NCBI RefSeq assembly: GCF_056746865.1
Contig: NZ_CM163382.1
Strand: one strand, 5' to 3'
Length of the DNA stretch: 64,000 nucleotides
Shown here one piece after another: positions 1,455 to 53,039 of this stretch. How positions within the stretch are numbered: position 1 is the first letter of the stretch; each line of letters opens with the position of its first letter. The notes beneath the pieces were generated by a model that saw only the letters and a program-made list of their open reading frames with translations, ran no database searches and was not told the origin of the DNA. The position numbers and the translations under genes were made by a program.

Positions 1455-1462
1455 ATCTGAGT

Positions 1463-1500
1463 CAACAACATCCTGCCTTCGTGCAGGATGTTGTTTTTGT
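1463..1500 (+). terminator. Rho-independent terminator after hcp
   Basis: Inverted repeat caacaacatcctgc / gcaggatgttgtt followed by a T-run. Confidence 0.6.
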
Positions 1501-1674
1501 ACGTGTAAAAAATGAGTGTCAGTAAGGAGTTACGCTTTCATGAGGGAGATGGCGGATGCCGGAAACCCGGGCGGTAGCGTACCTGAAAATGTAAAGATGA
1601 GTGTAACGCTGCACTGGCACCCTTTGCTGCATGGTAAGAATCATTTGGTCCGTGAATAAATCAGGGAGGTCATT

Positions 1675-4472: not shown

Positions 4473-4493
4473 AAAGACAAACGGATAGATTAT

Positions 4494-6065: not shown

Positions 6066-6131
6066 GTGATATTACAGAAATTAAAAGTGAACAGTATAAT
6101 GAGTATTTTCCCCTTTTGAGAGAGAATAATT

Positions 6132-7142: not shown

Positions 7143-7172
7143 TTAACCTGTTGGGCTACAAATCAGGATGTC

Positions 7173-7216
7173 CGGTAAGGTGATTATTACTGAGTTAAGC
7201 ACCTTACCGTTTTTTA
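7173..7216 (+). terminator. Rho-independent terminator closing the hcp–vgrG–effector unit
   Basis: Stem cggtaaggtg / caccttaccg followed by TTTTTT. Confidence 0.5.
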
Positions 7217-8379
7217 AATTTTTTGTCGCTGATATTCCAGACAGGAAAACAATATGCCTTTAGCTGCCAGATTAAACGACAAAGGTACCGGCACAGGGAA
7301 AGATCACGTAACGCTGCTTTTTTGTACTAAATAATTCGCATTTTATGTTTAAAATTTGAGATATTCCTCATTACCTGAGGCTGTTTTTTATTACTTATAC
7401 ATGATCAAATACTCCTTACATAATTAAGGGGAACAAAATGGAACTTAAAAATTGATGGAACATATTTCTGTTATTCCCGATTACAGACAAGCCTGGAAAG
7501 TGGAACATAAATTGTCGGATATTCTACTGTTGACTATTTGTGCCGTTATTTCGGGTGCAGAAGGTTGGGAAGATATAGAGGATTTTGGGGAAACACATCT
7601 CGATTTTTTAAAACAATACGGTGATTTTGAAAATGGTATTCCTGTTCACGATACCATCGCCAGAGTTGTATCCTGTATCAGTCCTGCAAAATTTCACGAG
7701 TGCTTTATTAACTGGATGCGAGATTGCCATACTTCAGATGATAAAGACGTCATCGCAATTGATGGAAAAACGCTCCGGCACTCTTATGACAAGAGTCGCC
7801 GCAGGGGAGCGATTCATGTCATTAGTGCGTTCTCAACAATGCACAGCCTGGTCATCGGACAGATCAAGACGGATGAGAAAACCAATGAGATTACAGCTAT
7901 CCCAGAACTTCTTAACATGCTGGATATTAAAGGAAAAATCATCACAACTGATGCGATGGGTTGCCAGAAAGATATTGCAGAGAAGATACAAAAACAGGGC
8001 GGTGATTATTTATTCGCTGTAAAAGGAAATCAGGGGCGGCTTAATAAAGCCTTTGAGGAAAAATTCCCACTGAAAGAATTAAATAATCCAGAGCATGACA
8101 GTTACGCAATGAGTGAAAAGAGTCACGGCAGAGAAGAAATCCGTCTTCATATTGTTTGCGATGTCCCTGATGAACTTATTGATTTCACGTTTGAATGGAA
8201 AGGACTGAAGAAATTATGCGTGGCAGTCTCCTTTCGGTCCATAATAGCAGAACAAAAGAAAGAGCCAGAAATGACGGTCAGATATTATATCAGTTCTGCT
8301 GATTTAACCGCAGAGAAGTTCGCCACAGCAATCCGAAACCACTGGCACGTGGAGAATAAGCTGCACTGGCGTCTGGACG

Positions 8380-10270: not shown

Positions 10271-10493
10271 TGGTAATGAATGAAGACGACTGCAAAATAA
10301 GAAGAGGAAATGCAGCAGAATTATTTTCAGGGATACGGCACATCGCTATTAATATTTTGACGAATGATAAGGTATTCAAGGCAGGGTTAAGACGTAAGAT
10401 GCGAAAAGCAGCCATGGACAGAAACTATCTGGCGTCAGTCCTTGCGGGGTGCGGGCTTTCGTAATCTTTCCCTGGATGTGAAAAGCAGCTGCG

Positions 10494-11779
10494 GACAGGG
10501 AAAGATCATCAGAAGTACACTTTTTGTACTAAACAATTCGCATTTTATGTTTAAAAATTGAGATATTCCTCATTACCTGAAGCTGTTTTTTATTGCTTAT
10601 ACATGATCAAATACTCCTTACATAATTAAGGAGAACAAAATGGAACTTAAAAAATTGATGGAGCATATTTCTATTATCCCCGATTACAGACAAGCCTGGA
10701 AAGTGGAACATAAATTATCGGATATTCTACTGTTGACTATTTGTGCCGTTATTTCTGGTGCAGAAGGTTGGGAAGATATAGAGGATTTTGGGGAAACACA
10801 TCTCGATTTTTTGAAGCAATATGGTGATTTTGATAATGGTATTCCTGTTCACGATACCATTGCCAGAGTTGTATCCTGTATCAGTCCTGCAAAATTTCAC
10901 GAGTGCTTTATTAACTGGATGCGTGACTGCCATTCTTCAGATGATAAAGACGTCATTGCAATTGATGGAAAAACGCTCCGACACTCTTATGACAAGAGTC
11001 GCCGCAGGGGAGCGATTCATGTCATTAGTGCGTTCTCAACAATGCACAGCCTGGTCATCGGACAGATCAGGACGGATGAGAAATCTAATGAGATTACAGC
11101 TATCCCTGAACTTATTAACATGCTGGATATTAAAGGAAAAATCATCACAACTGATGCGATGGGTTGCCAGAAAGATATTGCAGAGAAGATACAAAAACAG
11201 GGAGGTGATTATTTATTCGCTGTAAAAGGAAACCAGGGGCGGCTAAATAAAGCCTTCGAGGAAAAATTTCTGCTGAAAGAATTAAATAATCCAGAGCATG
11301 ACAGTTACGCAATTAGTGAAAAGAGTCACGGCAGAGAAGAAATCCGTCTTCACATTGTTTGCGATGTCCCTGATGAACTTATTGATTTCACGTTTGAATG
11401 GAAAGGTCTGAAGAAATTATGCGTGGCAGTCTCCTTTCGGTCAATAATAGCAGAACAAAAGAAAGAGCCCGAAATGACGGTCAGATATTATATCAGTTCT
11501 GCTGATTTAACCGCAGAGAAGTTCGCCACAGCAATCCGAAACCACTGGCACGTGGAGAATAAGCTGCACTGGCGTCTGGACGTGGTAATGAATGAAGACG
11601 ACTGCAAAATAAGAAGAGGAAACGCAGCAGAATTATTTTCAGGGATACGGCACATTGCTATTAATATTTTGACGAATGATAAGGTATTCAAGGCAGGGTT
11701 AAGACGTAAGATGCGAAAAGCAGCCATGGACAGAAACTACCTGGCGTCAGTCCTTGCGGGGAGCGGGCTTTCGTAATCT
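10494..11779 (+). mobile_element. H-repeat (ISAs1-family) element copy 2, intact
   Basis: Left IR acagggaaagatca and right IR tcttgccctg; direct orientation, about 20 bp after copy 1. Confidence 0.75.
10640..11776 (+). CDS. H-repeat-associated ISAs1-family transposase
   Basis: 378-aa [35 protein letters not shown]… uninterrupted. Confidence 0.85.
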
Positions 11780-11895
11780 TGCCCTGGTACAGTAAACAAA
11801 CGAAAGTTGTTATTTCAATGGTCAGGGCAAGAGCATGAAGTGTTTACTACACACTATGCTCTTGTCCTGGAGTCAGGTCTTGTTTGGAGGGATAA

Positions 11896-12399
11896 ATGGT
11901 AGATATTGTCGAGGCCGATAAAACGGATATTTATTTCATTCAGGAGAGTGTTTATGGCAAAATCGGGTTGCCAGCTTTTGGTAATACAATAGGACCATCC
12001 GCACAGCAAGTTGTTAAAAAGGTATTCGCTGTCGTTAAAGAACGAGATAAGACACATGCAAAACAGAGATTATTGTTGGAATATAATGGTAACAAACTCT
12101 GGATGAATGCTATTGATGGCAGTGAAGCTATCCTACCAACAGAATTTTCTAAGCGATACGAACTTTCATTATTTAATACTACTAATTTTGGAGAAGATCC
12201 TTTTCCTGATGTTAATTTATATAATAATATGAAATCAAGTTTTTTTGTAAGGTTTGGTGGAACATCCCATCCCGAGGCTTGGGCTATTTATAATGCAAGT
12301 ACGAAAGAGGTTAAATATATAGAAACTGCAAGAGAAATTGATAAAATATTCAGTGATTTTAACTTGAGTGGTACATTGCCAATTCACATTGGTCGATGA
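11896..12399 (+). CDS. Hypothetical protein, AT-rich cargo
   Basis: 167-aa ORF in a low-GC segment between H-repeat elements; no recognisable motif. Confidence 0.35.
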   Translation: MVDIVEADKTDIYFIQESVYGKIGLPAFGNTIGPSAQQVVKKVFAVVKERDKTHAKQRLLLEYNGNKLWMNAIDGSEAILPTEFSKRYELSLFNTTNFGEDPFPDVNLYNNMKSSFFVRFGGTSHPEAWAIYNASTKEVKYIETAREIDKIFSDFNLSGTLPIHIGR

Positions 12400-12465
12400 T
12401 TTTTTAAATTGTGTGATTAAATAATTGAACATTAATGATGATTTATAGCATTATTATTCTATAAC

Positions 12466-12978
12466 ATGAATAAACGGATTGAATGTGTTATGTTAAAAAT
12501 AAGTTTATACGTAATAATATTGTTATTTTCCTTTCAGATTAGTGCAGCCATTACTAGCAAGGAAAGTGAGGTTGTTTCACCATTATTAATGGATGTTAAT
12601 TCTTCACTAACAATGGAAAATATTTCTGAATTATCCACATCATCGGAACCATCGCAACAGGGGGTATTTCCTGTAATATGTACTCGACTTCATCCTGGCT
12701 CCGTAATGAAACGCCAGTTATTAACCGGCTGGGGGCCTGTTTTTATAATTGGTGATGATCCTTTTTCTCTGCGCTGGATGAGTGAACATCTGGAGATCCT
12801 TAAATCGCTAAATGCCCTTGGTTTGGTTGTTAATGTTGAATCAGTAGAACGAATGGAGGTATTACAGCAGCGGGCTGATGGGTTATTGTTATTGCCAGTT
12901 ATCTGCGATAATTTCGTGCAAACTCTGCAATTAAATGCTTATCCGGTATTAATCACAGAGATGGAAATATCACAATGA
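12466..12978 (+). CDS. Hypothetical secreted/membrane protein
   Basis: 170-aa ORF with a hydrophobic N-terminal segment (ISLYVIILLFSFQISAAITS); low GC. Confidence 0.35.
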   Translation: MNKRIECVMLKISLYVIILLFSFQISAAITSKESEVVSPLLMDVNSSLTMENISELSTSSEPSQQGVFPVICTRLHPGSVMKRQLLTGWGPVFIIGDDPFSLRWMSEHLEILKSLNALGLVVNVESVERMEVLQQRADGLLLLPVICDNFVQTLQLNAYPVLITEMEISQ

Positions 12979-12994
12979 TTAATAACATAATTAC

Positions 12995-13215
12995 TGCAAA
13001 TAATATCGTAATTTTGAAAATGGTAATTCTGTTCACGGCACCATAATTAGAGTTATGTCTTGTATCCGTTCAGTATAATTTCACGAATGCTTTATTAACT
13101 GGATGCGAGATTGCCATTCATCAAATGATAAAGACGTCATCGCAATTGATGGAAAAGCGCTTCCACACTCCTATGATAAAAGTGGTCGCAGGGGAGCGGG
13201 CTTTCGTAGTCTTAG
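12995..13215 (+). pseudogene. Internally deleted H-repeat transposase remnant (position equivalent to K-12 yafF)
   Basis: Matches the ENGIPVH…[10 protein letters not shown]…SRRRGA segment, then jumps to the element 3' end (…ggagcgggctttcgtagtct…); junction at a short ggggagcg microhomology. Confidence 0.6.
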
Positions 13216-14173: not shown

Positions 14174-14647
14174 ATGGGCAGGATAAGCTCGGGAGGAATG
14201 ATGTTTAAGGCAATAACGACAGTCGCCGCTCTGGTCATCGCCACCAGTGCAATGGCGCAGGATGATTTAACCATTAGCAGCCTTGCAAAGGGCGAAACCA
14301 CCAAAGCTGCGTTTAATCAGATGGTGCAAGGGCATAAGCTGCCTGCATGGGTGATGAAAGGCGGTACTTATACTCCCGCACAAACCGTAACGTTGGGAGA
14401 TGAGACGTATCAGGTGATGAGCGCGTGCAAACCGCATGACTGTGGCTCGCAACGTATCGCTGTGATGTGGTCCGAGAAATCTAATCAGATGACGGGGCTG
14501 TTCTCGACTATTGATGAGAAAACGTCGCAAGAGAAACTCACCTGGTTGAATGTGAACGATGCGCTTTCGATTGATGGTAAAACGGTGCTGTTCGCGGCGT
14601 TGACCGGCAGCCTGGAAAACCATCCGGATGGTTTTAATTTTAAATAA
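14174..14647 (+). CDS. ivy: Inhibitor of vertebrate lysozyme Ivy
   Basis: 157-aa ORF with signal peptide and the CKPHDCG motif. Confidence 0.9.
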   Translation: MGRISSGGMMFKAITTVAALVIATSAMAQDDLTISSLAKGETTKAAFNQMVQGHKLPAWVMKGGTYTPAQTVTLGDETYQVMSACKPHDCGSQRIAVMWSEKSNQMTGLFSTIDEKTSQEKLTWLNVNDALSIDGKTVLFAALTGSLENHPDGFNFK

Positions 14648-18157: not shown

Positions 18158-18925
18158 ATGTGCGAATTGCTCGGGATGAGCGCCAACGTCCCTACCGATA
18201 TCTGCTTTAGTTTCACCGGGCTTGTACAGCGTGGTGGTGGAACCGGGCCACATAAAGATGGCTGGGGCATCACCTTTTACGAAGGTAAAGGCTGTCGCAC
18301 ATTTAAAGATCCACAACCCAGCTTTAATTCCCCCATCGCCAAACTTGTCCAGGACTACCCGATAAAATCCTGTTCGGTTGTGGCTCATATTCGGCAGGCC
18401 AATCGGGGCGAGGTGGCGCTGGAAAATACTCACCCGTTTACCCGCGAGTTATGGGGACGCAACTGGACTTATGCCCATAACGGGCAACTGACGGGCTACA
18501 AATCACTGGAAACCGGCAACTTCCGCCCGGTCGGTGAAACCGATAGCGAAAAAGCCTTTTGCTGGCTCCTGCATAAATTAACGCAGCGTTACCCGCGCAC
18601 ACCGGGCAACATGGCGGCAGTGTTTAAATATATCGCCTCACTGGCGGATGAACTGCGGCAGAAGGGCGTTTTCAACATGCTGCTTTCAGACGGGCGCTAT
18701 GTAATGGCGTATTGCTCGACTAATTTACACTGGATCACCCGCCGCGCGCCGTTTGGCGTGGCAACGTTGCTGGATCAGGATGTGGAAATCGACTTCAGCT
18801 CGCAGACCACACCTAATGATGTGGTCACGGTGATTGCGACACAGCCGCTGACGGGCAATGAAACCTGGCAAAAGATTATGCCAGGCGAATGGCGCTTATT
18901 TTGCCTCGGGGAGCGTGTAGTTTGA
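18158..18925 (+). CDS. yafJ: Class II glutamine amidotransferase-like protein YafJ
   Basis: Start [19 protein letters not shown]… (N-terminal Cys nucleophile); 255 aa. Confidence 0.85.
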
Positions 18926-19636
18926 TGCCAGCTGTGGTTGCACAACTTCGTGGCTTAACGGCTTGCTGACCACGTAACGGCCATTGACCACAGAAACGGT
19001 CGGTGGCTTACGGGTTTGCTCAAAGTAGTCGTAGCCCGGTTTCAGTTGCTCCCAGAAGTCCTTAAAGTTGGAATACTTATGGCGCTTCATATTAGCGTCG
19101 GTCATACGGAACGGGTAAATACTCACTTGCACGCTCGGCTGACCAAACACCAGCGCACCAGTAACGAACTGGAAGATCTCATCAATACCCTGATTGGTCA
19201 TCGCGTAGCAGCCGATGGAAACACAATCGCCGTGGATCATCAGGTATTTCCCTTCATAACCATGCGCACGGTCATAGGCATTGGGGAATCCAATATTAAT
19301 CGCTTTGTAGTAACGGCTGTCTGGTTTTAACTGATTACGCTGGACGCTATAAAACCCTTCCGGGCTTTTGAAATCGCCCTGACGCTGTTTTGGTCCTAAG
19401 CCGCCGGAATATTTACAGATTTTATAGCTGTCGAGCAGTTGATATTGCTCGCCCATTTTGACGTAGAGATCGAGCGTACGTTCTTCCTTGAAGATCTGGA
19501 TGTAGACAGGGGATCCCATCAACTGCTGCTTATACTCTTTGCTCACTGGCGTGGTCGAGCTACTGCTGCCCAGCAAACCGGCAAACGAAACGCACGGGAT
19601 CAACAACATCGCAAGAATTAATGCGATTTTACGCAT
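18896..19636 (-). CDS. yafK: L,D-transpeptidase-fold periplasmic protein YafK
   Basis: 246-aa ORF with signal peptide [19 protein letters not shown] and YkuD-like content. Confidence 0.85.
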
Positions 19637-19927: not shown

Positions 19928-20686
19928 ATGTCCTTCATGTCTTCGTTCTTTCACGGCAGATTTCTGCATCCAGGCGTGTTTTCGTTATGCGTTTTGCTCC
20001 CTTTACTCGCCAGCGCCACCACATCACATATCTCTTTCAGCTACGCCGCCCGCCAGCGGATGCAAAACCGTGCGCGTTTATTAAAACAGTACCAAACCCA
20101 TCTGAAAAAACAGGCCAGCTATATTGTGGAAGGCAATGCCGAAAGCAGAAAGGCGCTGCGCCAGCACAACCGCGAACAGATAAAACAGCATCCAGAATGG
20201 TTTCCTGCGCCGCTCAAGGCGAGTGACAGACGCTGGCAGGCGCTGGCGGAGAACAACCATTTCTTAAGCAGCGACCATCTGCACAACATCACCGAAGTGG
20301 CGATTCACCGCCTGGAGCAGCAGCTTGGTAAGCCTTACGTCTGGGGCGGCACGCGGCCCGATCAAGGCTTCGACTGTAGCGGGTTGGTTTTTTATGCCTA
20401 CAACAAGATCCTCGAGGCGAAGCTCCCGCGCACGGCCAATGAGATGTATCACTACCATCGGGCAACGATTGTGGCGAATAACGACCTGCGCCGGGGAGAT
20501 TTGCTGTTTTTCCATATTCACAGCCGTGAGATTGCCGATCATATGGGCGTGTATCTGGGAGACGGTCAGTTTATCGAGTCGCCGCGCACCGGGGAAACCA
20601 TTCGGGTAAGTCGGTTAGCTGAACCTTTCTGGCAGGATCATTTTTTAGGCGCGCGCAGGATTTTGACGGAAGAGACGATTTTGTAG
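19928..20686 (+). CDS. yafL: NlpC/P60-family peptidoglycan endopeptidase YafL
   Basis: 252-aa ORF with signal peptide and NlpC/P60 signature (…GFDCSGLVFYAY…H…). Confidence 0.8.
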   Translation: MSFMSSFFHGRFLHPGVFSLCVLLPLLASATTSHISFSYAARQRMQNRARLLKQYQTHLKKQASYIVEGNAESRKALRQHNREQIKQHPEWFPAPLKASDRRWQALAENNHFLSSDHLHNITEVAIHRLEQQLGKPYVWGGTRPDQGFDCSGLVFYAYNKILEAKLPRTANEMYHYHRATIVANNDLRRGDLLFFHIHSREIADHMGVYLGDGQFIESPRTGETIRVSRLAEPFWQDHFLGARRILTEETIL

Positions 20687-20862: not shown

Positions 20863-21360
20863 ATGTCTGAATATCGTCGTTATTACATCAAGGGGGGAAC
20901 ATGGTTTTTCACGGTAAATTTACGGAATCGTCGAAGCCAACTTTTGACCACCCAGTACCAGACACTCCGTAACGCCATTATTAAAGTTAAGCAGGCCAGA
21001 CCTTTTGAAATTAACGCCTGGGTAGTTTTGCCAGAGCATATGCACTGTATCTGGACATTACCCGAAAGTGATGATGATTTTTCCTCTCGCTGGCGGGAGA
21101 TTAAAAAGCAGTTCACCCATGCTTGCGGATTGAAAAATATCTGGCAACCGCGTTTTTGGGAGCATGCCATTCGCAATACAAAAGATTATCGCCATCATGT
21201 TGATTATATTTATATAAATCCAGTGAAACATGGCTGGGTAAAGCAGGTGAGTGATTGGCCATTCTCAACGTTCCATCGCGATGTAGCGCGAGGGTTATAT
21301 CCCATTGATTGGGCGGGAGACATAACGGATTTTAGTGCCGGGGAGCGTATTATTTTATAA
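20863..21360 (+). CDS. rayT: REP-associated tyrosine transposase RayT (YafM)
   Basis: 165-aa ORF MSEYRRYYIKGGTWFFTVNLRNRR…; IS200/IS605-like HuH fold; flanked by REP elements. Confidence 0.85.
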   Translation: MSEYRRYYIKGGTWFFTVNLRNRRSQLLTTQYQTLRNAIIKVKQARPFEINAWVVLPEHMHCIWTLPESDDDFSSRWREIKKQFTHACGLKNIWQPRFWEHAIRNTKDYRHHVDYIYINPVKHGWVKQVSDWPFSTFHRDVARGLYPIDWAGDITDFSAGERIIL

Positions 21361-29440: not shown

Positions 29441-29552
<112 letters not shown>

Positions 29553-39332: not shown

Positions 39333-40262
39333 TCACGTCAGCAGCGAAAACGCTGAAAGCAGCGGCTCTGCCGCACATAACGACTGAATTTGCTGGCGAA
39401 TCGACGCAGCATTTTCACTCTCTCGCCAGCGTTCAAACACCGCAAAAAGGGCGAAAATATCCTCCTGTCGCAGCGGTGAACCATCCAGCGTCCATAAACT
39501 GATTAACGTGCGGATAAGATAAAAATCGCACACCAGCGGGCAATAATCTGCTCCGTCTGCCTGCCCAATCACCTCATGGTAAACGCGGTAAATCAGCCAG
39601 TTACGCATCATCCAGGGCGCGGTAGCAAAATGCTGTTGCCAGGTGGTTTGCCACTGTGCCTGAAGCTGATGTTGTAACAGGGCTTCGCTGTTGGCGTCAT
39701 GTAGCGCCAGCAAAGGCATCTGCAACGGCAGCGAAGTTTTGCGCGGGCTTTCCGGCAAAATCGACCAGTCAAACGCACAACTGCCGAGCAGCGTCATCAA
39801 CTGGCGCGCCAGTTGTGGCACGGGCGGCAACTGGGCGAACTGTGCCTGTAGCGTGCCTTTTTTCGCATGATCGGCCAGCGCCTGCGGCAGCGTCGTCAAA
39901 CGGGCAAGAATATCTCCGTCTCTGCCCGGCATTTTACTGGCGCGGGAGAGTAAAATCCCGATGGCATACAGGGAAAGCTCTGGGGTTAAATCGGGGAGCG
40001 TGAGGGTACTCAAAATCACCTGGTTTACTATCGCATCGCGCGCGGAAAGCTCTGCGGCATTTTCTTCCACAGGACGGTAGGTGAGCTGTAAATCAAAGGC
40101 CCTGGCATCGTTGAGTACCGCTTCGCAGCTGGCTGGCTCTGTCAGCATCAGGCTCTGGCGAATCTCGTTTTTCCACACCTTGCGGATGTACAAAGGCGAA
40201 TCGGGATATTGCGTCATAAAATTGCGCACGTATTCCGGTTCGTAACATTCAATAAAACTCAT
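39333..40262 (-). CDS. Hypothetical protein in the lfgA–lfgM–lfgN transcription unit
   Basis: ORF 39333..40301; probable start MSFIECYEPEYV at 40262 preceded by GGAAG. No recognisable motif. Confidence 0.45.
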   Translation of the reverse strand: MSFIECYEPEYVRNFMTQYPDSPLYIRKVWKNEIRQSLMLTEPASCEAVLNDARAFDLQLTYRPVEENAAELSARDAIVNQVILSTLTLPDLTPELSLYAIGILLSRASKMPGRDGDILARLTTLPQALADHAKKGTLQAQFAQLPPVPQLARQLMTLLGSCAFDWSILPESPRKTSLPLQMPLLALHDANSEALLQHQLQAQWQTTWQQHFATAPWMMRNWLIYRVYHEVIGQADGADYCPLVCDFYLIRTLISLWTLDGSPLRQEDIFALFAVFERWRESENAASIRQQIQSLCAAEPLLSAFSLLT

Positions 40263-41971: not shown

Positions 41972-42007
41972 TAGCGTATGCGGATTGAAGCAGGAGTGAC
42001 GCAGGAA

Positions 42008-42343
42008 ATGGGGATCAGTTTTCAACAGGCATTGGGAGTGCATCCGCAGGCAGTGAAGTTACGTCTTGAGAGGACCGAGCTACTGACTGCGAATCTGGCG
42101 AACGTCGATACGCCAAATTTCAAGGCTAAAGATATTGATTTTGCCAGGGAGATGCAACGGGCAAATAACGCGGCGGTGGATGTCCAGTACCGCGTACCGA
42201 TGCAGCCGTCAGAAGATGGCAACACCGTGGAACTGAACAGCGAACAGGCACGGTTTTCACAAAATAGTATGGATTATCAAAGCAGTCTGACCTTTCTGAA
42301 TCTGCAAATCAGCGGCATCAGAGAGGGCATTGAAGGGAAATAA
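42008..42343 (+). CDS. lfgB: Flagellar rod protein FlgB homolog
   Basis: ORF 41978..42343; start placed at MGISFQQ… (42008) because the sigma-54 promoter predicts transcription starting near 41983. Confidence 0.75.
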   Translation: MGISFQQALGVHPQAVKLRLERTELLTANLANVDTPNFKAKDIDFAREMQRANNAAVDVQYRVPMQPSEDGNTVELNSEQARFSQNSMDYQSSLTFLNLQISGIREGIEGK

Positions 42344-42345
42344 GC

Positions 42346-42777
42346 ATGTCATTTACTGATATCTATCAGATTTCCGGCTCGGCGATGACGGCGCAAACCA
42401 TTCGTCTGAATACCGTTGCCAGTAACCTGGCGAATGCCAATGCACCTGCCGGCAGCGAGGCGCAGGCGTATAAAGCGCGCAGCCCGGTGTTTGCGGCGGT
42501 GTATCACCACAGCTTGCTGGCGGGAACGCATCGTCATGCCATTGATGGTGCCAGCGTGCAGGTGCAGGACGTGCTGCAAACCGGCGGGGCGGTGAAACGC
42601 TATGAACCGCATTCGCCGCTGGCGGATGCTAACGGGGATGTCTGGTATCCCGACGTCAACGTGGTGGAACAGATGGCGGACATGATGTCGGCCTCGCGCG
42701 ATTTTGAAACCAACGTCGATGTGCTCAACAACGTGAAAAGTATGCAGCAAAGCCTGCTGAAACTGGGAGAAGCCTGA
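42346..42777 (+). CDS. lfgC: Flagellar rod protein FlgC homolog
   Basis: 143-aa ORF with conserved rod N-terminal motif (…TIRLNTVASNLANANA…). Confidence 0.9.
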   Translation: MSFTDIYQISGSAMTAQTIRLNTVASNLANANAPAGSEAQAYKARSPVFAAVYHHSLLAGTHRHAIDGASVQVQDVLQTGGAVKRYEPHSPLADANGDVWYPDVNVVEQMADMMSASRDFETNVDVLNNVKSMQQSLLKLGEA

Positions 42778-43490
42778 TGAATACCCTGGCGCTGAATGCG
42801 CAATCGCCGCAGCCGACCGCCACGGCGGAAAGCAACAACGTGGCAGCCAGCGACACGACAAGCAGCAGCGATAGCTCGCCCGTCGATACCTTCCTGACGC
42901 TGTTTGTCGCTGAGATCCAAAACCAGGACCCGACCGACCCGACTGACGCCACCGAATATATCGACCAGCTTTCTTCGATGGCGCAGGTGGCGATGATGGA
43001 AGAGATGAGCGTGCAGGCCAACACCAACGCGGTGCTGATGAGCAACATTCAGGTGATGGCGCTCGGCAACCTGGTGGGTGACGACATTATGGTGCAGACC
43101 ACCGCCTTGCAGGTGAGCGACCAGACCATTAATGGTCGCGCCACGCTTGACGACGCCTGTACCACCGCCGATCTCCACTTTACCGATGCCGCAGGCGATG
43201 ACTACACCGTCTCGCTGATCCCGCAGGGCAGTTCGTCCGTCGGGCCAGGCCAGGTCGATTTCTCGATTAATCCGGCGGATTACGGTATCCCGCCCGGTGA
43301 TTACGACGTCTCGGTGGTGACCAACACCGGGGAAGAAGAGGTGCCGATTGAAGTTTCCGGCGAAGTGGAAGATGTACGCATCCCGCTCGACGGCGGCTCT
43401 CCGGTGCTCAATGTTGCAGGCGTGGGCGAAGTGCCGTTCACCATGATTAGCCAGTTTGGCGTACCCGATGCCGACAGTGATGTGGCGTGA
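42777..43490 (+). CDS. lfgD: Flagellar hook cap protein FlgD homolog
   Basis: 237-aa ORF; FlgD-like N-terminal region and position. Confidence 0.8.
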   Translation: MNTLALNAQSPQPTATAESNNVAASDTTSSSDSSPVDTFLTLFVAEIQNQDPTDPTDATEYIDQLSSMAQVAMMEEMSVQANTNAVLMSNIQVMALGNLVGDDIMVQTTALQVSDQTINGRATLDDACTTADLHFTDAAGDDYTVSLIPQGSSSVGPGQVDFSINPADYGIPPGDYDVSVVTNTGEEEVPIEVSGEVEDVRIPLDGGSPVLNVAGVGEVPFTMISQFGVPDADSDVA

Positions 43491-43499
43491 TGTCCGGTG

Positions 43500-43597
43500 C
43501 CAAATTGCCTGATGCGCTTCGCTTATCAGGCCTACATGAAACTGCATGGTTTTGTAGGCCGGATAAGGCGTTCACGCCGCATCCGGCAAAACAACGG
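43500..43597. repeat. REP elements between lfgD and lfgE
   Basis: gcctgatgcg…cttatcaggcctaca … gtaggccggataaggcgttcacgccgcatccggca. Confidence 0.65.
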
Positions 43598-43633
43598 GCA
43601 CGCTGTCAAAATTTGAATTAACAGGACGAAACA

Positions 43634-44836
43634 ATGAGTTATGAAATTGCCGCAACGGGGCTGAATGCCGTTAACGAACAGCTCGACGGGATCAGTAACA
43701 ACATCGCCAACGCCGGAACGGTAGGCTATAAGTCGATGACCACCCAGTTTTCAGCCATGTATGCCGGAAGTCAGGCGATGGGCGTCAGCGTGGCAGGCAC
43801 CGCGCAAAGCATTTCGCGCGGCGGTTCGCTGGTCTCCACCGGTAACGCGCTGGATCTGGCGATTAACAACGATGGCTTTTTTGTGACCTGCGACAGCGCG
43901 GGCAACATTTCTTATACCCGCGCCGGATCGTTTGAAACCGACAAAAACGGCTATATTGTCAACGCCTCAGGCGCTTATTTGCAGGGTTATCCGGTCGATG
44001 ACACTGGCACCCTGCAAACCGGTACGGTCACCGATATCCAGATCAAAACCGGCAATATCCCGGCGCAGGCCAGCAGCAGCCTGACCTTTACCGCTAACTT
44101 CGATGCCAGCGACGACGCTATCGACCGCACCACCGTACCATTCGACCCGACCAACAGCAGCTCGTACACCGACAGCTACACCACCACGGTGTATGACTCA
44201 TTGGGTAACGAACATTCGGTATGCCAGTACTTCACCAAAACCAGCGACAACACCTGGGAAGTGCAGTACACCTTCGACGGCCAGCAGCAGACCGGCGTTC
44301 CGGCGACGACATTAACCTTCGACCCGAATACCGGGAAGCTGACCTCGCTAACTACGCCGCAAACCATTGAGTTTCAGACCGACGCCGCCGCGCCCATCGA
44401 CTTAACCGTCGATTACTCCACCTGTACGCAATACGGCTCTGACTTCTCGGTCACCACCAACTCTGCCAACGGCTACGCTTCCGCGACTCAGAACGGTGTG
44501 CAGGTTGATGACGATGGCAAAGTTTACGCCACCTACAGCAACGGCGAGCGCATGTTGCAGGGCCAGGTGGTGCTGGCGACTTTCCCGAATGAAAACGGCC
44601 TGGAGGCAGTGAGCGGCACCGCGTGGGTACAAACCGGGGAATCCGGCACCCCGCTGATTGGCGTTCCAGGCTCCGGTACCTGCGGTACGCTCACGTCCGG
44701 CGTGCTCGAAAGCTCTAACGTCGATATAACCAGCGAGTTAGTCAACCTGATGACCGCCCAGCGTAACTATCAGGCCAACACCAAAGTTATCGCCACCAGC
44801 ACGCAGCTCGATGACGCGCTGTTCCAGGCGATGTAA
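43634..44836 (+). CDS. lfgE: Flagellar hook protein FlgE homolog
   Basis: 400-aa ORF with flagellar axial-protein N-terminus (…NNIANAGTVGYK…) and C-terminus (…ANTKVIATS…). Confidence 0.9.
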   Translation: MSYEIAATGLNAVNEQLDGISNNIANAGTVGYKSMTTQFSAMYAGSQAMGVSVAGTAQSISRGGSLVSTGNALDLAINNDGFFVTCDSAGNISYTRAGSFETDKNGYIVNASGAYLQGYPVDDTGTLQTGTVTDIQIKTGNIPAQASSSLTFTANFDASDDAIDRTTVPFDPTNSSSYTDSYTTTVYDSLGNEHSVCQYFTKTSDNTWEVQYTFDGQQQTGVPATTLTFDPNTGKLTSLTTPQTIEFQTDAAAPIDLTVDYSTCTQYGSDFSVTTNSANGYASATQNGVQVDDDGKVYATYSNGERMLQGQVVLATFPNENGLEAVSGTAWVQTGESGTPLIGVPGSGTCGTLTSGVLESSNVDITSELVNLMTAQRNYQANTKVIATSTQLDDALFQAM

Positions 44837-45573
44837 TGGACCGTTTGATTTATACCGCCCTGAGCGGTGCTTCTCAGACCCTGTACGAGCAGCAGATCAG
44901 CGCCAACAACCTGGCGAACGTCAACACCAACGGTTTTCGCGCCGATATGGCAATGGCAACCAACGACAAGGTGAAAGGCGGCGGCTTCGACACGCGCTAT
45001 ATGGCGCAGGAAGGGGCCAGCGGCGTGAACGACAGCACAGGTGTTGCGGAGAAAACCGAACGCCCGCTGGACGTGGCGATTCAGGGCGCGGGTTACATTG
45101 CGGTGCAGGATAAAAACGGCAACGAAGTCTATACCCGCAACGGCAACATTCAGCAGGATGACCAGGGGCAACTGACCATCGACGGCAATCTGGTGCTGGG
45201 GGATAACGGCCCGATCATTCTGCCGCCGAACGCCATTGCTTCGTTTGGCAGCGACGGCACGCTGTCGGTGACGCCCGATGACGGCGACGTGACTGCAACC
45301 ATGGATATCGACCGCCTGAAGCTGGTGGATATTCCTGTCGCTAACCTGGCGAAAAATCCTGAAGGGATGCTGATAACTGCCGACGGCGTTCCGGCCCAGC
45401 GCGATGAAAATATCAAAGTCAGTGGCGGTTTTCTCGAAGGCAGCAACGTCTCGGCGGTGAGCGAGATGATGTCGTCCATCGCCATGAACCGCCAGTTTGA
45501 AGCGCAGATCAAGATGATGAAAACCGCCGAAGATATCAGCGACGCGGGCAACCGCTTATTGCGCGGCTCGTAA
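44836..45573 (+). CDS. lfgF: Flagellar proximal rod protein FlgF homolog
   Basis: 245-aa ORF with rod N-terminal motif (…ANNLANVNTNGFRA…). Confidence 0.85.
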   Translation: MDRLIYTALSGASQTLYEQQISANNLANVNTNGFRADMAMATNDKVKGGGFDTRYMAQEGASGVNDSTGVAEKTERPLDVAIQGAGYIAVQDKNGNEVYTRNGNIQQDDQGQLTIDGNLVLGDNGPIILPPNAIASFGSDGTLSVTPDDGDVTATMDIDRLKLVDIPVANLAKNPEGMLITADGVPAQRDENIKVSGGFLEGSNVSAVSEMMSSIAMNRQFEAQIKMMKTAEDISDAGNRLLRGS

Positions 45574-45579
45574 CCGCAC

Positions 45580-45718
<139 letters not shown>

Positions 45719-45751
45719 CCGCGGCCGAAAAACAACACGGAATTTACCACC

Positions 45752-46537
45752 ATGAACGCAGCACTATGGATCAGCAAAACCGGCCTCTCGGCGCAGGATG
45801 CTGAAATGAGCGCGATTGCCAACAACATCGCCAACGTTAACACCACCGGCTTCAAGCGTGACCGGGTGATGTTTCAGGATCTGTTCTACCAGACCCAGGA
45901 AGCGCCGGGCGCGATGCTCGATCAGAACAACATCATGCCGACCGGGCTGCAATTCGGTAGCGGCGTGCGCATTGTCGGCACCCAGAAAACCTTCACCGAA
46001 GGCAACGTCGAAACCACCGACAACGCCATGAATGTCGCCATTATGGGGCAGGGGTTTTTGCAGGTGCAAAAGGCCAACGGCGATATCGCCTATACCCGCG
46101 ACGGCAACTTGCAGGTGAACGCCGACGGCGTACTGACCAACTCGCAGGGCTTGCCGTTGCAGCCGGAAATCGACGTTCCGGCGGGGGCGACCAACGTCGC
46201 GTTTGGCGAGGACGGCACGGTGACGGCGATCTTACCCGGCGACAGCGATGTGACCGAGTTAGGGCAACTGACACTGGTGAACTTCGCCAACCCAGCGGGG
46301 CTTTCTGCCGAGGGCGACAACCTGTATCTGGAAACCGCCGCCAGCGGTCAGCCGACCGAAGGTGTGCCGGGCGAAGATGGGCTTGGCACCTTGCAGGACA
46401 ACGCGCTCGAAGGCTCGAACGTGGATATCGTCAACGAAATGGTGGCGATGATTACGGTGCAACGCGCGTACGAGATGAACGCCAAAATGGTGTCGGCAGC
46501 GGACGATATGTTGCAGTACATCAGCCAGACGCTGTAA
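45752..46537 (+). CDS. lfgG: Flagellar distal rod protein FlgG homolog
   Basis: Start MNAALWISKTGLSAQD… within ORF 45626..46537 (the upstream extension translates REP sequence); 261 aa. Confidence 0.9.
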   Translation: MNAALWISKTGLSAQDAEMSAIANNIANVNTTGFKRDRVMFQDLFYQTQEAPGAMLDQNNIMPTGLQFGSGVRIVGTQKTFTEGNVETTDNAMNVAIMGQGFLQVQKANGDIAYTRDGNLQVNADGVLTNSQGLPLQPEIDVPAGATNVAFGEDGTVTAILPGDSDVTELGQLTLVNFANPAGLSAEGDNLYLETAASGQPTEGVPGEDGLGTLQDNALEGSNVDIVNEMVAMITVQRAYEMNAKMVSAADDMLQYISQTL

Positions 46538-46743: not shown

Positions 46744-47409
46744 GTGAAAAATTATCTCTGGCTGGTGGCGCTGCTTCCACTCCTTAGCGGGTGTGAATCA
46801 CAGGCCATTCTGGTCAAAAAAGACGACGCATACTTTGCGCCACCCAAAACCGAAGCGCCGCCTCCGGCAGACGGGCGTGCCGGGGGCGTGTTTGAAACTG
46901 GCTACAACTGGTCGCTAACCGCCGACCGGCGGGCTTACCGCGTGGGCGATATCCTGACGGTGATCCTCGAAGAATCTACCCAGTCGAGCAAACAGGCGAA
47001 AACCAACTTCGGCAAAAACAACACCGTCGATATCGGCGCGCCGACCATTTTTGGTCACACCAAAGATAAGCTTTCCGGCTCTATCGACGCCAACCGCGAC
47101 TTTGACGGCAGCGCCACTTCCCAGCAGCAGAACAGCCTGCGCGGGGAGATCACCGTTTCCGTCCATGCGGTGCAGCCCAACGGCATTCTGGAAATTCGCG
47201 GCGAAAAATGGCTCACCCTCAACCAGGGTGATGAGTACATCCGCTTAAGCGGCCTGGTGCGCGCCGACGATATCCAGAACGACAACTCGGTTTCCTCCCA
47301 GCGGATCGCCGACGCCCGCATTTCCTATGCCGGACGCGGCGCGTTAAGCGACGCCAACGCCGCAGGCTGGCTGACGCGGTTGTTTAACCATCCTCTGTTC
47401 CCGATTTAA
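46744..47409 (+). CDS. lfgH: Flagellar L-ring lipoprotein FlgH homolog
   Basis: 221-aa ORF with lipoprotein signal (LLPLLSGC) and FlgH-like content. Confidence 0.9.
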
Positions 47410-48524
47410 TGCCGGAGAGTGCAATGCAAAACTGGATAAAGGCCGCAGCGATCGCTGTAAGCCTGGCGCTGCCCGGCGTGGCGCTGGCGCAATCGCTGGA
47501 GTCGCTGGTCAACGTACAGGGCGTGCGTGAAAACCAACTGGTCGGCTACAGCCTGGTGGTCGGCCTCGACGGCACGGGTGATAAAAACCAGGTCAAATTC
47601 ACCAACCAGACCATCACCAATATGCTGCGCCAGTTTGGCGTGCAGCTGCCGAATAAAATCGACCCGAAGGTGAAAAACGTCGCGGCGGTGGCGGTGAGCG
47701 CCACGCTGCCGCCGATGTACTCGCGCGGGCAGACCATTGACGTCACCGTTTCGTCGATTGGCGATGCCAAAAGTATTCGCGGCGGCACTTTATTGCTTAC
47801 GCAGCTGCACGGCGCAGATGGCGAAGTGTATGCCCTGGCGCAGGGAAGTGTGGTGGTGGGCGGGATGAATGCCACCGGGGCCAGCGGTTCCAGCGTGACG
47901 GTTAACACACCGACCGCCGGGTTAATTCCCAACGGCGCGACGGTGGAGCGTGAGATCCCCAGCGATTTTCAGATGGGCGACACCATCACCCTCAACCTGA
48001 AACGCCCGTCGTTTAAAGATGCCAACAATATTGCGGCGGCGATCAACGCTTCGTTTGGCGGCATCGCCACCGCGCAGAGTTCCACCAACGTTACCGTGCG
48101 CGCGCCCACCAGCCCCGGCGCGCGGGTGGCGTTTATGTCGCAACTGGATGATGTACAGGTGCAGGCAGAGAAAATCCGCGCCCGCGTGGTGTTTAACTCG
48201 CGCACTGGCACGGTGGTAATGGGCGATGGCGTTGCGCTGCACGCGGCGGCGGTGTCGCACGGCAGTTTGACCGTCTCGATTAACGAAACCAGCAACGTCA
48301 GCCAGCCGAATGCCTTTGCGGGCGGGCGCACGGCGGTAACGCCGCAGAGCAATATCGCGGTGAATCACGCCCGTCCGGGGGTGGTGAGTTTGCCGGAGTC
48401 GAGCAGCCTGAAAACGTTGGTTAATGCGTTGAACAGTTTAGGCGCGACGCCGGATGACATTATGTCGATTTTGCAGGCGCTGCATGAAGCGGGCGCGCTG
48501 GATGCCGACCTGGAGGTGATCTGA
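47409..48524 (+). CDS. lfgI: Flagellar P-ring protein FlgI homolog
   Basis: 371-aa ORF with signal peptide and FlgI-like content. Confidence 0.9.
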
Positions 48525-48823
48525 TGAAAGTTAACGGCAGCGGCGGGATTGATGGCAGCGACGCATTAATGGGGCCGAAGGTTCAGGCCAATGATATCAA
48601 GCAGGCTGCGGAACAGTTTGAGGCGATTTTTTTACGCAACATGTTGAAAGAGATGCGTAAAACCAACGAGTTGTTCGATTCGAAAGATAACCCGTTTAAC
48701 AGCGATTCGGTGCGCATGATGCAGGGGTTTTATGACGATGAGTTGTGTAACACCCTGGCGCAGCAGCACGGGATTGGGATTGCGGCGATGATTGTGAAGC
48801 AGTTGTCGCCGAAGCATAAATGA
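48524..48823 (+). CDS. lfgJ: FlgJ-like rod-binding protein (no peptidoglycan hydrolase domain)
   Basis: 99-aa ORF at the FlgJ position with a rod-binding-type sequence (…AAEQFEAIFLRNMLKEMRKT…) and no muramidase region. Confidence 0.75.
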   Translation: MKVNGSGGIDGSDALMGPKVQANDIKQAAEQFEAIFLRNMLKEMRKTNELFDSKDNPFNSDSVRMMQGFYDDELCNTLAQQHGIGIAAMIVKQLSPKHK

Positions 48824-48835
48824 GGCTCCGACGTT

Positions 48836-48933
48836 CGGTGCCTGATGCGACGCTGGCGCGTCTTATCAGGCCTACGAGTCGCCCGTATGTAGGCCGGATA
48901 AGGCGTTCACGCCGCATCCGGCACCCGGTTTAC
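48836..48933. repeat. REP elements between lfgJ and lfgK
   Basis: cctgatgcgacgctggcgcgtcttatcaggcctac … gtaggccggataaggcgttcacgccgcatccggca. Confidence 0.7.
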
Positions 48934-48998
48934 GGAACTTAAGAATCCCCAACCTAACGCCGCTTTTAACCGGCACGATTTACCGGTAAGGATCCAAC

Positions 48999-50375
48999 AT
49001 GGACATGATTAACATCGGCTACAGCGGCGCATCAACCGCGCAGGTGGAGCTGAACGTCACGGCGCAAAACACCGCCAACACCATGACCACGGGCTACACC
49101 CGTCAGGTGGCGGAGATCAGCACCATCGGTGCCAGCGGCGGTTCGCCGAACAGCGCCGGTAACGGCGTGCAGGTCGATAGCATTCGCCGCGTCTCCAACC
49201 AGTATCAGGTGAATCAGGTGTGGTATGCCGCCAGCGATTACGGCTATTACAGCACCCAGCAAGGGTATCTCACGCAACTGGAAGCGGTACTGAGCGACGA
49301 TAACAGCAGCCTGAGCGGCGGCTTCGATAACTTTTTCGCCGCCCTTAACGAAGCGACCACCAGCCCCGATGATTCCGCCCTGCGCGAGCAGGTGATCAGC
49401 GAAGCCGGGGCGCTGTCGCTGCGTATCGACAACACGCTGGATTACATCGACTCGCAAAGCACGGAAATCATCAGCCAGCAGCAGGCGATGGTGTCGCAAA
49501 TTAATACGCTCACCAGCGGTATCGCCAGCTATAACCAGCAAATCGCTCAGGCCGAAGCCAACGGCGATAACGCCTCCGCGCTGTACGACGCCCGCGACCA
49601 GATGGTGGAAGAACTCAGCGGGATGATGGATGTGCAGGTCAATATCGACGACCAGGGCAACTACAACGTTACCCTGAAAAACGGTCAACCGCTGGTGAGC
49701 GGGCAGCAAAGCTCGACCATCGCGCTGGAAACCAACGCCGACGGCACGCCGACCATGTCGCTGACCTTCGCCGGAACCACCTCGACGATGACCACCGACA
49801 CTGGAGGTTCATTAGGCGCACTGTTTGATTATCAAAACGACGTGCTGACGCCGCTGACCGACACCATCAACAGCATGGCGTCGCAGTTTGCCGATGCGGT
49901 CAACAATCAACTGGCGCAGGGCTACGATCTCAACGGCAACCCCGGCGAGCCGCTGTTTATTTATGACGCCAGCAACGCCGATGGCCCGCTGACCGTCAAC
50001 CCGGATATCACCGCCGATGAGCTGGCGTTTTCCAGTTCACCGGACGAAAGCGGTAACAGCGACAACTTACAGGCGCTGATCAATATCTCCACCGAACCGC
50101 TGGAGATAGCCAACCTCGGCAGCGTGACGGTCGGGCAGGCGTGCTCGTCAATCATCAGCAATATCGGCATTTACAGCCAGCAAAACCAGACGGAAGTCGA
50201 TGCCGCGTCCAATGTCTATTCCGCAGCGCAAAACCAGCAGAGCAGCGTCAGCGGCGTCAGCATGGACGAAGAGGCGGTTAACCTGATCACCTATCAACAA
50301 ATTTATGAAGCCAATCTGAAAGTCATTTCCGCCGGGGCCGAGATTTTCGATTCGGTGCTGGAAATGTGCAGCTAA
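48999..50375 (+). CDS. lfgK: Hook-associated protein 1 FlgK homolog
   Basis: 458-aa ORF with axial-protein termini and position after flgJ. Confidence 0.85.
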   Translation: MDMINIGYSGASTAQVELNVTAQNTANTMTTGYTRQVAEISTIGASGGSPNSAGNGVQVDSIRRVSNQYQVNQVWYAASDYGYYSTQQGYLTQLEAVLSDDNSSLSGGFDNFFAALNEATTSPDDSALREQVISEAGALSLRIDNTLDYIDSQSTEIISQQQAMVSQINTLTSGIASYNQQIAQAEANGDNASALYDARDQMVEELSGMMDVQVNIDDQGNYNVTLKNGQPLVSGQQSSTIALETNADGTPTMSLTFAGTTSTMTTDTGGSLGALFDYQNDVLTPLTDTINSMASQFADAVNNQLAQGYDLNGNPGEPLFIYDASNADGPLTVNPDITADELAFSSSPDESGNSDNLQALINISTEPLEIANLGSVTVGQACSSIISNIGIYSQQNQTEVDAASNVYSAAQNQQSSVSGVSMDEEAVNLITYQQIYEANLKVISAGAEIFDSVLEMCS

Positions 50376-51335: not shown

Positions 51336-52313
51336 ATGCAGGTCGGACTTACATCTTCGTCACTCGCCACCGGCGGCGCGCATAGCGCTGCGGTATCGTC
51401 GTCAACCGTTGCGCCCACTCAGGCGGTGCGGCAAAAACTCCCGGCGACGGCGAGTGAATATCCGGCCTCGCCGCTGATTACCACTCGCCCGCAGCGTTAC
51501 AGCGTGCAGCTTAACGACCAGCTCACCACGTTGCAGCAGGCGGATCACTATCTCGGGCAACTGGAGCAGCAGTTGCTCGATTATCGTCACAGCCAGCGCA
51601 AAGGCGGGCAGGCGCAGAGTTCGGCGCTGATGCAGATGCTGGACAAACGCACCGCGCTTTCCGGCGGTGCGGTGGACCGCCAGTTGCAGCCAGTGTTGCA
51701 GGGGGAAGCGCGGGTGACTTTTCACTCGCCGGATCTGGCGAATCTGGTACACAATCCCACGCCGGGAACGCGCATGTTCAGCGTCTCTGACGGGCGGCAG
51801 ACTCAGCTTTCGGCGGTGATGCTGTCTGAGGATGACAGCGCTGGGCAGTACCAGACGCGGCTGACCAACGCCCTGCGCCGCGTGGGCGTGCAGATGCATC
51901 AAAACGCCGATGGTATAAGTTTCTCCACCACTGAAAAACAGTGGCCCAACATTGAAAGCACCCTAAGCGTGCGCACCGATGGTGATAAATCAGCGTTTAT
52001 GCCACTAAAAACCTTTGCCGAACCGTCGCAGGCGGACCGCTTAGTGCAAAGCCTGCAACAGGGCGGAGCGGGGATTTCTCAGACGTTAGAAAGCATTAAT
52101 CAGCAGCGTGTGCAGATGGCGGTACAGCAGGAAAAGGCGCGGCAGTTGATCGACGGCATGTCGCGCTTCCCGCAAACGGAAAGCGCCGTGCAGGCGTCGG
52201 AAAATCTCGGCGGCGTGCTGGATAGCGCCAATCATAACTATCAGGTTTTATTGCAGGCGGTGAACGGTCAGGCGCGAATTTCCAGCCAGACGGTGAGGAG
52301 TTTATTGGGTTAG
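51336..52313 (+). CDS. lafW: Lateral-flagellar protein LafW-like (function uncertain)
   Basis: 325-aa ORF after flgL; assignment by position in the Flag-2 gene order. Confidence 0.5.
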   Translation: MQVGLTSSSLATGGAHSAAVSSSTVAPTQAVRQKLPATASEYPASPLITTRPQRYSVQLNDQLTTLQQADHYLGQLEQQLLDYRHSQRKGGQAQSSALMQMLDKRTALSGGAVDRQLQPVLQGEARVTFHSPDLANLVHNPTPGTRMFSVSDGRQTQLSAVMLSEDDSAGQYQTRLTNALRRVGVQMHQNADGISFSTTEKQWPNIESTLSVRTDGDKSAFMPLKTFAEPSQADRLVQSLQQGGAGISQTLESINQQRVQMAVQQEKARQLIDGMSRFPQTESAVQASENLGGVLDSANHNYQVLLQAVNGQARISSQTVRSLLG

Positions 52314-52385: not shown

Positions 52386-52730
52386 ATGATGTGGGACGTC
52401 GAGACAACGGAGACTTTCGACAACTGGTTTGATGCCCAGACTGTTGCGCTGAAAGAAGATTTACTTGCTGCAATGCTGATTCTTGCTGAGTATGGCCCAC
52501 AGTTGGGCAGACCCTTTGCGGATACGGTTAATGATTCACAGTTTTCAAATATGAAAGAATTACGCGTCCAACATCAGGGAAACCCGGTACGTGCTTTTTT
52601 TGCTTTCGATCCTGCGCGCCGTGGCATTGTATTATGTGCGGGTGATAAAACGGGGTTAAATGAGAAAAAGTTTTATCGCGATATGATCAAGCTCGCTGAT
52701 TCTGAATACCGTAAGCATCTGAAAAAGTAA
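52386..52730 (+). CDS. Type II toxin, RelE/ParE superfamily (HigB-like)
   Basis: 114-aa ORF MMWDVETTETFDNWFDAQ…GNPVRAFFAFDPARRGIVLCAGDKTG…, the toxin class usually encoded upstream of an HTH antitoxin. Confidence 0.7.
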   Translation: MMWDVETTETFDNWFDAQTVALKEDLLAAMLILAEYGPQLGRPFADTVNDSQFSNMKELRVQHQGNPVRAFFAFDPARRGIVLCAGDKTGLNEKKFYRDMIKLADSEYRKHLKK

Positions 52731-52739
52731 GGAACGATA

Positions 52740-53039
52740 ATGGCTACTCTAAAAGAACTGATGGCAAAGCAAAGCCCTGAAAGCCAGGTGCGTATTGCGG
52801 CAAAAGTTGAGGAAATGCGCCAGACCATCGCCTTGCATCAGCTGAGAGAAGAACTCAATATTTCGCAAACGGAAATGGCGGCAGCGATGGGCATTAAGCA
52901 ACCGACTCTTGCAAAAATGGAGCAGGCAGATAACGATCCTCGGTTGTCTACGCTAAAACGCTATGTTGCGGCTTTAGGTGGGGAATTGAGTATCGACGTT
53001 AAACTGCCGAATGGTAAGAGAATTGCATTTCAGATTTAA
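52740..53039 (+). CDS. HTH (XRE-family) antitoxin, HigA-like
   Basis: 99-aa ORF 10 bp after the toxin; HTH segment LNISQTEMAAAMGIKQPTLAKME. Confidence 0.7.
   Translation: MATLKELMAKQSPESQVRIAAKVEEMRQTIALHQLREELNISQTEMAAAMGIKQPTLAKMEQADNDPRLSTLKRYVAALGGELSIDVKLPNGKRIAFQI

Follow-up and report, generated by a model that had tools for sequence, protein, structure and literature searches.

[quoted passage not shown]

Introduction

What opens the cell wall for a flagellum whose FlgJ homologue consists of the rod-binding domain only? As a textbook rule, the FlgJ proteins of beta- and gamma-proteobacteria are two-domain proteins, and the question is raised by a gene in a 64,000-nucleotide stretch of contig NZ_CM163382.1 (RefSeq assembly GCF_056746865.1), which we call the window and to whose first letter all positions refer unless a related locus is named. 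An earlier note on this DNA claimed that the gene at the flgJ position encodes 99 amino acids, enough for the rod-binding region and not for a C-terminal muramidase domain, that the flagellum would then need a separate lytic enzyme, and that no such enzyme is visible in the locus. Here, we follow these claims through the gene, the locus and its relatives.

The locus is the Flag-2, or lateral flagellar, system of Enterobacterales, present in complete form from lfhA to lafU (23060 to 61659). Its annotation was taken from the RefSeq record of E. coli 118UI, which, like that of other strains, is 100% identical over the stretch used as a query (47409 to 50375), and in which no Flag-2 gene carries a pseudogene flag. 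The layout, with three clusters between lfhA and lafU and with lafA, lafK, lafW and lafZ, fits the published description of Flag-2 (PMC6993521). LafA scores 666.9 bits against the NCBIfam model NF033376 (lat_flg_LafA_1), for which the cut-off is 440, homologues of LafW were found, and LafZ carries a Trans_reg_C domain.

In the 118UI annotation, Flag-2 is preceded by the tail of a type VI secretion system, by debris of insertion sequences and a group II intron, and by the order yafV-ivy-fadE-lpcA-yafJ-dpaA-yafL-rayT-ISEc31, while dinB-yafN follow lafU. The type VI tail (936 to 13200) codes for Hcp, a truncated VgrG and a DUF4123 adaptor, together with proteins of 523 and 320 amino acids that have no Pfam family and are possibly an effector and its immunity protein. 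ISAs1 copies come after this tail, one of them split by a group II intron reverse transcriptase (8943 to 10193). Within Flag-2 itself, variable region 2 holds a toxin-antitoxin pair between lafW and lafZ (52386 to 53039), with a Gp49/RelE-like toxin and an HTH_3 protein as the antitoxin.

The lfgJ gene and its product

The open reading frame at 48524 to 48823 on the plus strand encodes 99 amino acids followed by a stop codon and is the rod-cap protein gene lfgJ of E. coli Flag-2. It sits in a run of rod and hook genes, between lfgI, which encodes the P-ring protein (47409 to 48524, plus strand; PF02119, E = 7e-134), and lfgK, which encodes hook-associated protein 1 (48999 to 50375, plus strand; FlgK_D1, E = 1e-64). 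Pfam identifies its neighbours as homologues of FlgH, FlgI and FlgK, and the rod, hook-cap and hook genes lfgB, C, D, E, F and G (41978 to 46537, plus strand) are assigned by the RefSeq annotation and, in the case of lfgB and lfgD, by Pfam as well. Reading the sequence around the start codon (48512 to 48526, plus strand), we find a GGAGG Shine-Dalgarno motif at 48512 to 48516, 7 nt 5' of the lfgJ ATG, which in turn overlaps the lfgI TGA by one base, an overlap that would be consistent with translational coupling of the two genes. Both the place between flgI and flgK and the overlapping start are shared with the flgJ gene of Flag-1.

Judged by its sequence, LfgJ is a member of the FlgJ N-terminal family that consists of the Rod-binding domain only. 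Pfam finds a single domain, PF10135, at residues 42 to 93 (E = 3e-14), with a score of 53.7 bits against a gathering cut-off of 25.1 and with a match that spans all of the profile (positions 1 to 51 of 51), and it finds no match to the GH73 glucosaminidase family PF01832. In BLASTP, LfgJ aligns with residues 30 to 102 of the 313-residue FlgJ of E. coli K-12 (34% identity, E = 5e-14), and no part of K-12 FlgJ beyond residue 102 is aligned. In a multiple alignment with fused and split relatives, the C-terminus of LfgJ (...VKQLSPKHK) falls at the point where the Pro/Ala-rich linker of the two-domain FlgJs begins. Against TIGR02541, the NCBIfam equivalog model for the two-domain protein, to which the FlgJ of Salmonella and of E. 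coli Flag-1 belongs, LfgJ scores 68.1 bits, which is below the cut-off of 193; its best NCBIfam matches are short "FlgJ" models of 97 to 129 positions. Thus, in comparison with Flag-1 FlgJ, LfgJ has the homologous N-terminal region but wholly lacks the linker and the GH73 domain, and the earlier note was right both about the size of the product and about the absence of the muramidase domain. RefSeq already names the protein "rod-binding protein" (WP_000867281.1).

The AlphaFold2 (AF2) model of LfgJ is of low confidence (pLDDT 55), and no Rod-binding domain of known structure turned up when PDB sequences were searched with a profile. Residues 1 to 17 are variable and come out poorly in the model, and no hydrophobic (Sec) signal peptide is apparent. 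Cys75 is invariant among the close homologues of LfgJ and might have formed a disulfide bond with a partner protein; this idea was rejected because the multiple alignment shows the cysteine to be missing in Pseudescherichia (L024), Rahnella, Tatumella and others.

With LfgI as bait, we collected 76 related loci. In all 32 Enterobacterales Flag-2 loci among them, which span at least ten genera and include Citrobacter, Pseudocitrobacter, Phytobacter, Leminorella, Rahnella, Rosenbergiella, Tatumella, Pseudescherichia and Enterobacter, a rod-binding-only open reading frame of 99 to 124 amino acids directly follows lfgI, and no hydrolase gene was detected within about 8 kb on either side of lfgI. 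All 104 close homologues of LfgJ are about 100 amino acids long and have PF10135 as their only domain. Among the 5426 complete E. coli genomes, 1273 carry lfgJ, in every case over at least 80% of its length. The dN/dS ratio of lfgJ is 0.10 to 0.24 among distant orthologues for which dS was computable; three other comparisons, between closer orthologues, gave dN of 0.08 to 0.17 with dS saturated. The conserved length and the purifying selection argue that the short lfgJ is not a product of decay, and lfgJ is a conserved gene that is not eroding. A locus titled Chryseobacterium sp. 18061 (L017) also has an Enterobacteriaceae-type Flag-2, with the layout found in Citrobacter sp. 18056 (L016) from the same study, and is probably a case of contamination or mislabelling.

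The spacer downstream of lfgJ

A frameshifted muramidase region directly downstream of lfgJ would give a different picture, and the earlier note thought this unlikely on the grounds that the sequence there is REP elements. This description is accurate. The spacer between lfgJ and lfgK is 175 bp long and is mostly filled by two inverted, non-coding, BIME-like REP elements (48837 to 48925), recognised by their inverted repeats and copy number; the two REP types have 8 and 11 copies in the window, where 0 are expected. The 47409 to 50375 query finds matches in 5425 of the 5426 E. coli genomes, at a median of 38 places in each, and at least 80% of the query is covered in only 1245 of them. These many-place matches are best explained by a repeated element such as REP.

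No remnant of the GH73 domain was found. With the C-terminal domain of K-12 FlgJ as query, tblastn in six frames over the whole window gave nothing better than E = 0.2, and the C-terminus of the lateral FlgJ of Plesiomonas and a stand-alone GH73 protein of Comamonas gave nothing better than E = 0.1. With the same three queries, no GH73 relic was detected in 34 related single-domain loci either, in which the gap between lfgJ and lfgK is mostly 0 to 200 bp. Given that the spacer is short in these relatives, the REP elements are late arrivals in an already short spacer and not the cause of the removal of the domain.

REP elements of two types are found in several spacers of Flag-2, namely at 43558, 45587 and 45687, at 29458 to 29544 and in the lfgJ-lfgK spacer at 48840 to 48922. 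They have thus invaded a locus that only a quarter of E. coli strains possess, and the REP-associated transposase gene rayT (20863 to 21360) is separated from the end of the Flag-2 locus by about 1.7 kb.

Search for a lytic enzyme

The other claim, that the locus shows no separate lytic enzyme, held up in each of the searches that we made. Neither a GH73 gene, nor an SLT gene, nor another recognisable peptidoglycan glycosidase gene was found in the Flag-2 locus (23060 to 61659) by annotation, Pfam, tblastn or jackhmmer, and neither tblastn nor jackhmmer found an SLT or GH73 gene anywhere in the window. The annotated Flag-2 genes encode standard flagellar components, regulators and glycosylation functions, and according to Pfam the remaining unnamed open reading frames encode a GT2 glycosyltransferase, a cytidylyltransferase, a FliK-like and a MotB-like protein, a toxin-antitoxin pair and a Trans_reg_C regulator, with no lytic transglycosylase among them. 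A jackhmmer search seeded with two fusions of Rod-binding and SLT domains returned those two proteins only, a result of limited sensitivity.

It is conceivable that the locus does encode a lytic enzyme, one that has diverged too far to be recognised. There are two candidates for it, since both LafW (51336 to 52313, plus strand), a protein that is conserved in Flag-2, and the product of a 309-codon open reading frame adjoining lfgN downstream (39333 to 40262, minus strand) have no match in the copy of Pfam that we used, and the latter occupies the place at which a stand-alone GH73 gene is found in one relative (Comamonas, L036). The AF2 model of LafW (pLDDT 73.5) has flagellins and FlgL as its best PDB matches, with E values down to 7e-7 and TM-scores of only about 0.3, which agrees with the name "hook-associated protein" given to LafW homologues in the databases. 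The model is flagellin/FlgL-like and not lysozyme-like; moreover, Plesiomonas has a LafW-like protein beside a fused FlgJ, so LafW was rejected as a hidden lytic partner. The 309-amino-acid protein has no apparent signal peptide, falls into the family PF27117, named lysine-N-methylase, and is not similar to the GH73 protein of Comamonas; it was rejected as a degenerate hydrolase. We therefore regard a hidden enzyme of this kind as barely credible. The Plesiomonas protein at the lafW position (L080, 13605 to 14654) aligns to the LafW profile with 92% probability; it has been named Maf-5 (PMC4481668), a name that may be wrong.

The only peptidoglycan-active enzymes of the window are encoded just outside the Flag-2 locus. 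They are DpaA/YafK, an amidase with the LD-transpeptidase fold (18896 to 19636, minus strand), and YafL, a C40 NlpC/P60 peptidase (19937 to 20686, plus strand), neither of which cleaves glycan strands. Together with ivy, which encodes a lysozyme inhibitor (14201 to 14647, plus strand), these genes make three cell-wall-related genes that flank the lfhA end of Flag-2. Their proximity is probably coincidental, as dpaA/yafK, yafL and ivy are standard K-12 gene names.

FlgJ arrangements in related loci

Among the relatives of the Flag-2 locus, other arrangements of FlgJ are found. For instance, the lateral FlgJ of Plesiomonas shigelloides (FlgJL, also listed in PMC4481668) has 328 amino acids, with a Rod-binding domain and a Glucosaminidase domain (PF01832). 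Its N-terminal domain is 36% identical to LfgJ, and its locus is colinear with Flag-2, the two sharing fliHIJ, flgNMA, flgB to flgL, a LafW-like gene, lafA, fliD and fliS, on to motA; the fused glucosaminidase domain is kept in Plesiomonas but absent in E. coli Flag-2. A proteobacterial metagenome-assembled locus (L050) also encodes a fused Rod-binding and GH73 protein. In Pseudomonas otitidis and Parazoarcus communis (L040, 9057 to 10031; L041, 9053 to 10069), FlgJ has its Rod-binding domain fused to an SLT lytic-transglycosylase domain, which stands where GH73 would be.

In 12 further loci, mostly beta-proteobacterial and from Comamonas, Aquincola, Ideonella, Craterilacuibacter, Methyloversatilis and other genera, the two parts are split. 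A rod-binding-only FlgJ of about 112 to 117 amino acids is encoded after flgI, and a separate GH73 protein of about 250 amino acids is encoded about 7 kb upstream (at 1016 to 1828 in L036 and at about 600 to 2330 in L035, L038, L039 and L042 to L049). In the Comamonas locus L036, the one that was annotated in this respect, the GH73 gene lies directly 3' of flgM-flgN. We did not find this split arrangement described in the flagellar literature that we examined.

Single-domain FlgJ proteins are also found in other gamma-proteobacteria, in lateral-type loci of Dongshaea and a metagenome, and the name "rod-binding protein" is given to proteins of Photobacterium, Colwellia and Pseudobowmanella. Two of the related loci have unusual flgI genes. 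In Dongshaea marina, flgI is present as two open reading frames of 184 and 196 amino acids (L082, 8898 to 9997), which suggests a frameshift, and in Pelomonas sp. KK5, a single open reading frame of 452 amino acids (L045, 7991 to 9349) spans flgI and the short flgJ, perhaps through fusion of the two genes or through an error in sequencing.

LfgI is 63% identical to the lateral FlgI of Plesiomonas and 56 to 60% identical to the FlgI proteins of the beta-proteobacterial group, but only 51% identical to the FlgI of E. coli Flag-1. In a neighbour-joining tree of FlgI, a single-protein tree without support values from which the lateral systems of Vibrio, Aeromonas and Yersinia were left out, the single-domain Enterobacterales clade lies among the fused and split relatives. 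Because the colinear lateral locus of Plesiomonas and an outlying relative retain a fused GH73 domain, the short form in Enterobacterales is probably the result of a secondary loss.

Opening of the cell wall in Flag-2

Single-domain FlgJ proteins and the plasticity of FlgJ domains are established (Nambu 2006, as cited in PMC8517470). For example, FlgJ of the Fla1 system of Rhodobacter sphaeroides has about 100 amino acids, is a scaffold only and is accompanied by the separate enzyme SltF (PMC7277832), and FlgJ of Borrelia works with the lytic enzyme BB0259 (PMC8517470). LfgJ resembles both in having the scaffold region only, with the opening of the wall left to another protein. The SltF gene, however, lies inside the flagellar cluster, in the flgG operon, whereas no lytic transglycosylase or other glycosidase gene is found inside the E. 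coli Flag-2 cluster. A precedent for an envelope-spanning machine without a lytic gene of its own exists in the same species, albeit for a different machine, as the type VI secretion system of E. coli domesticates the housekeeping lytic transglycosylase MltE (PMC5841429). The point in the earlier note that Flag-2 would need a separate lytic enzyme is an extrapolation from the SltF and BB0259 systems rather than a demonstrated requirement.

We consider it likely that LfgJ is the rod cap or scaffold of Flag-2 and nothing else, and that enzymes from outside the locus, probably housekeeping lytic transglycosylases, open the wall. By homology, LfgJ would pass through the type III export gate of Flag-2, a route that we propose on account of its variable, poorly modelled N-terminus and the absence of an apparent Sec signal. 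Once exported, it would be placed at the end of the elongating rod of LfgB, LfgC, LfgF and LfgG, where it would promote rod polymerisation. As LfgJ has no enzymatic region, no product of the Flag-2 locus would make the opening in the peptidoglycan, and chromosomal lytic enzymes, probably housekeeping lytic transglycosylases, may be recruited or exploited at the rod tip. This source seems to us the most likely one and follows the pattern of SltF with FlgJ, BB0259 with FlgJ and MltE with type VI secretion. We infer the export, the capping and the identity of the wall-opening enzyme; no candidate partner for LfgJ was identified within the 64 kb of genome analysed, and the expression of Flag-2 is undemonstrated in E. 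coli (PMC6993521; PMC11420993).

There are other ways to account for a rod-binding-only LfgJ. The glucosaminidase domain of Flag-1 FlgJ could open the wall for Flag-2 in trans, such that an enzyme of its own could be lost. A two-domain flgJ is present in 5424 of the 5426 complete E. coli genomes, and essentially all of the 1273 carriers of lfgJ thus have both genes. Nevertheless, Tatumella ptyseos, Budvicia and Pragia have flag-2, have no flag-1 and are described as motile (PMC6993521), which indicates that Flag-1 is not generally needed, and the LfgJ of flag-1-less Tatumella is rod-binding-only as well, with 124 amino acids. In addition, the enzyme domain of Flag-1 FlgJ is joined to an N-terminal domain of its own that shares only 34% identity with LfgJ, and the two systems are not necessarily co-expressed, so we think help from Flag-1 rather improbable. 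We see about the same small chance that no lysis is needed at all, with LfgJ sufficing on its own and the rod passing through gaps in the sacculus that are natural or arise with growth. Muramidase-deficient flgJ mutants of Salmonella do become slowly motile upon prolonged incubation (Hirano 2001, as cited in PMC8781033), and a hydrolase gene is missing both from the surroundings of lfgI in the 32 Enterobacterales loci and from the whole locus in the window. On the other hand, the rod is wider than the reported pores of the sacculus (PMC8517470), the single-domain systems that have been studied use a lytic transglycosylase (PMC7277832, PMC8517470), and related loci have repeatedly retained a lytic module, in three arrangements, which argues that the activity is selected.

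The short lfgJ might also be a decaying remnant of a non-functional locus that lost its second domain by erosion. Flag-2 is deleted in most E. coli strains and frameshifted in strain 042 (PMC6993521), and it has no shown function in this species. Erosion is nonetheless difficult to reconcile with a length and a domain boundary that are conserved over 32 loci and at least ten genera, with the low dN/dS ratio, with the lack of a detectable relic of the lost domain in the 34 single-domain loci and of pseudogene flags in the window's locus, and with the occurrence of single-domain forms in the lateral-type loci of Dongshaea and a metagenome. We thus regard decay as very improbable, and return to a rod cap that depends on enzymes encoded elsewhere. 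A fuller version of this reading is that the Enterobacterales Flag-2 lineage secondarily dropped a hydrolase that its closest relatives kept, either fused or split, and that LfgJ recruits a housekeeping lytic transglycosylase to the rod tip; we put this forward tentatively, as a proposal that has a real chance of being correct but is less likely right than wrong.

Significance

A rod-binding-only LfgJ is a correct observation but for the most part an ordinary one, a well-known and already annotated variant, given that the description of single-domain FlgJ proteins dates back to 2006 and that RefSeq already calls the product "rod-binding protein". What is mildly new is that a secondary flagellar system of E. 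coli departs from the rule of two-domain FlgJ proteins, with no partner enzyme in the locus. The comparative Flag-2 papers of De Maayer 2020 mention neither FlgJ nor peptidoglycan, a statement that covers those papers and not the original Flag-2 paper of 2005. It is also mildly new that a fused GH73, a fused SLT, a split GH73 and no enzyme at all are found next to one another among closely related gene sets. If the proposed loss of the hydrolase and recruitment of a housekeeping enzyme are true, Flag-2 would be a natural and genetically tractable flagellum without a wall-opening enzyme of its own, in the best-studied bacterium.
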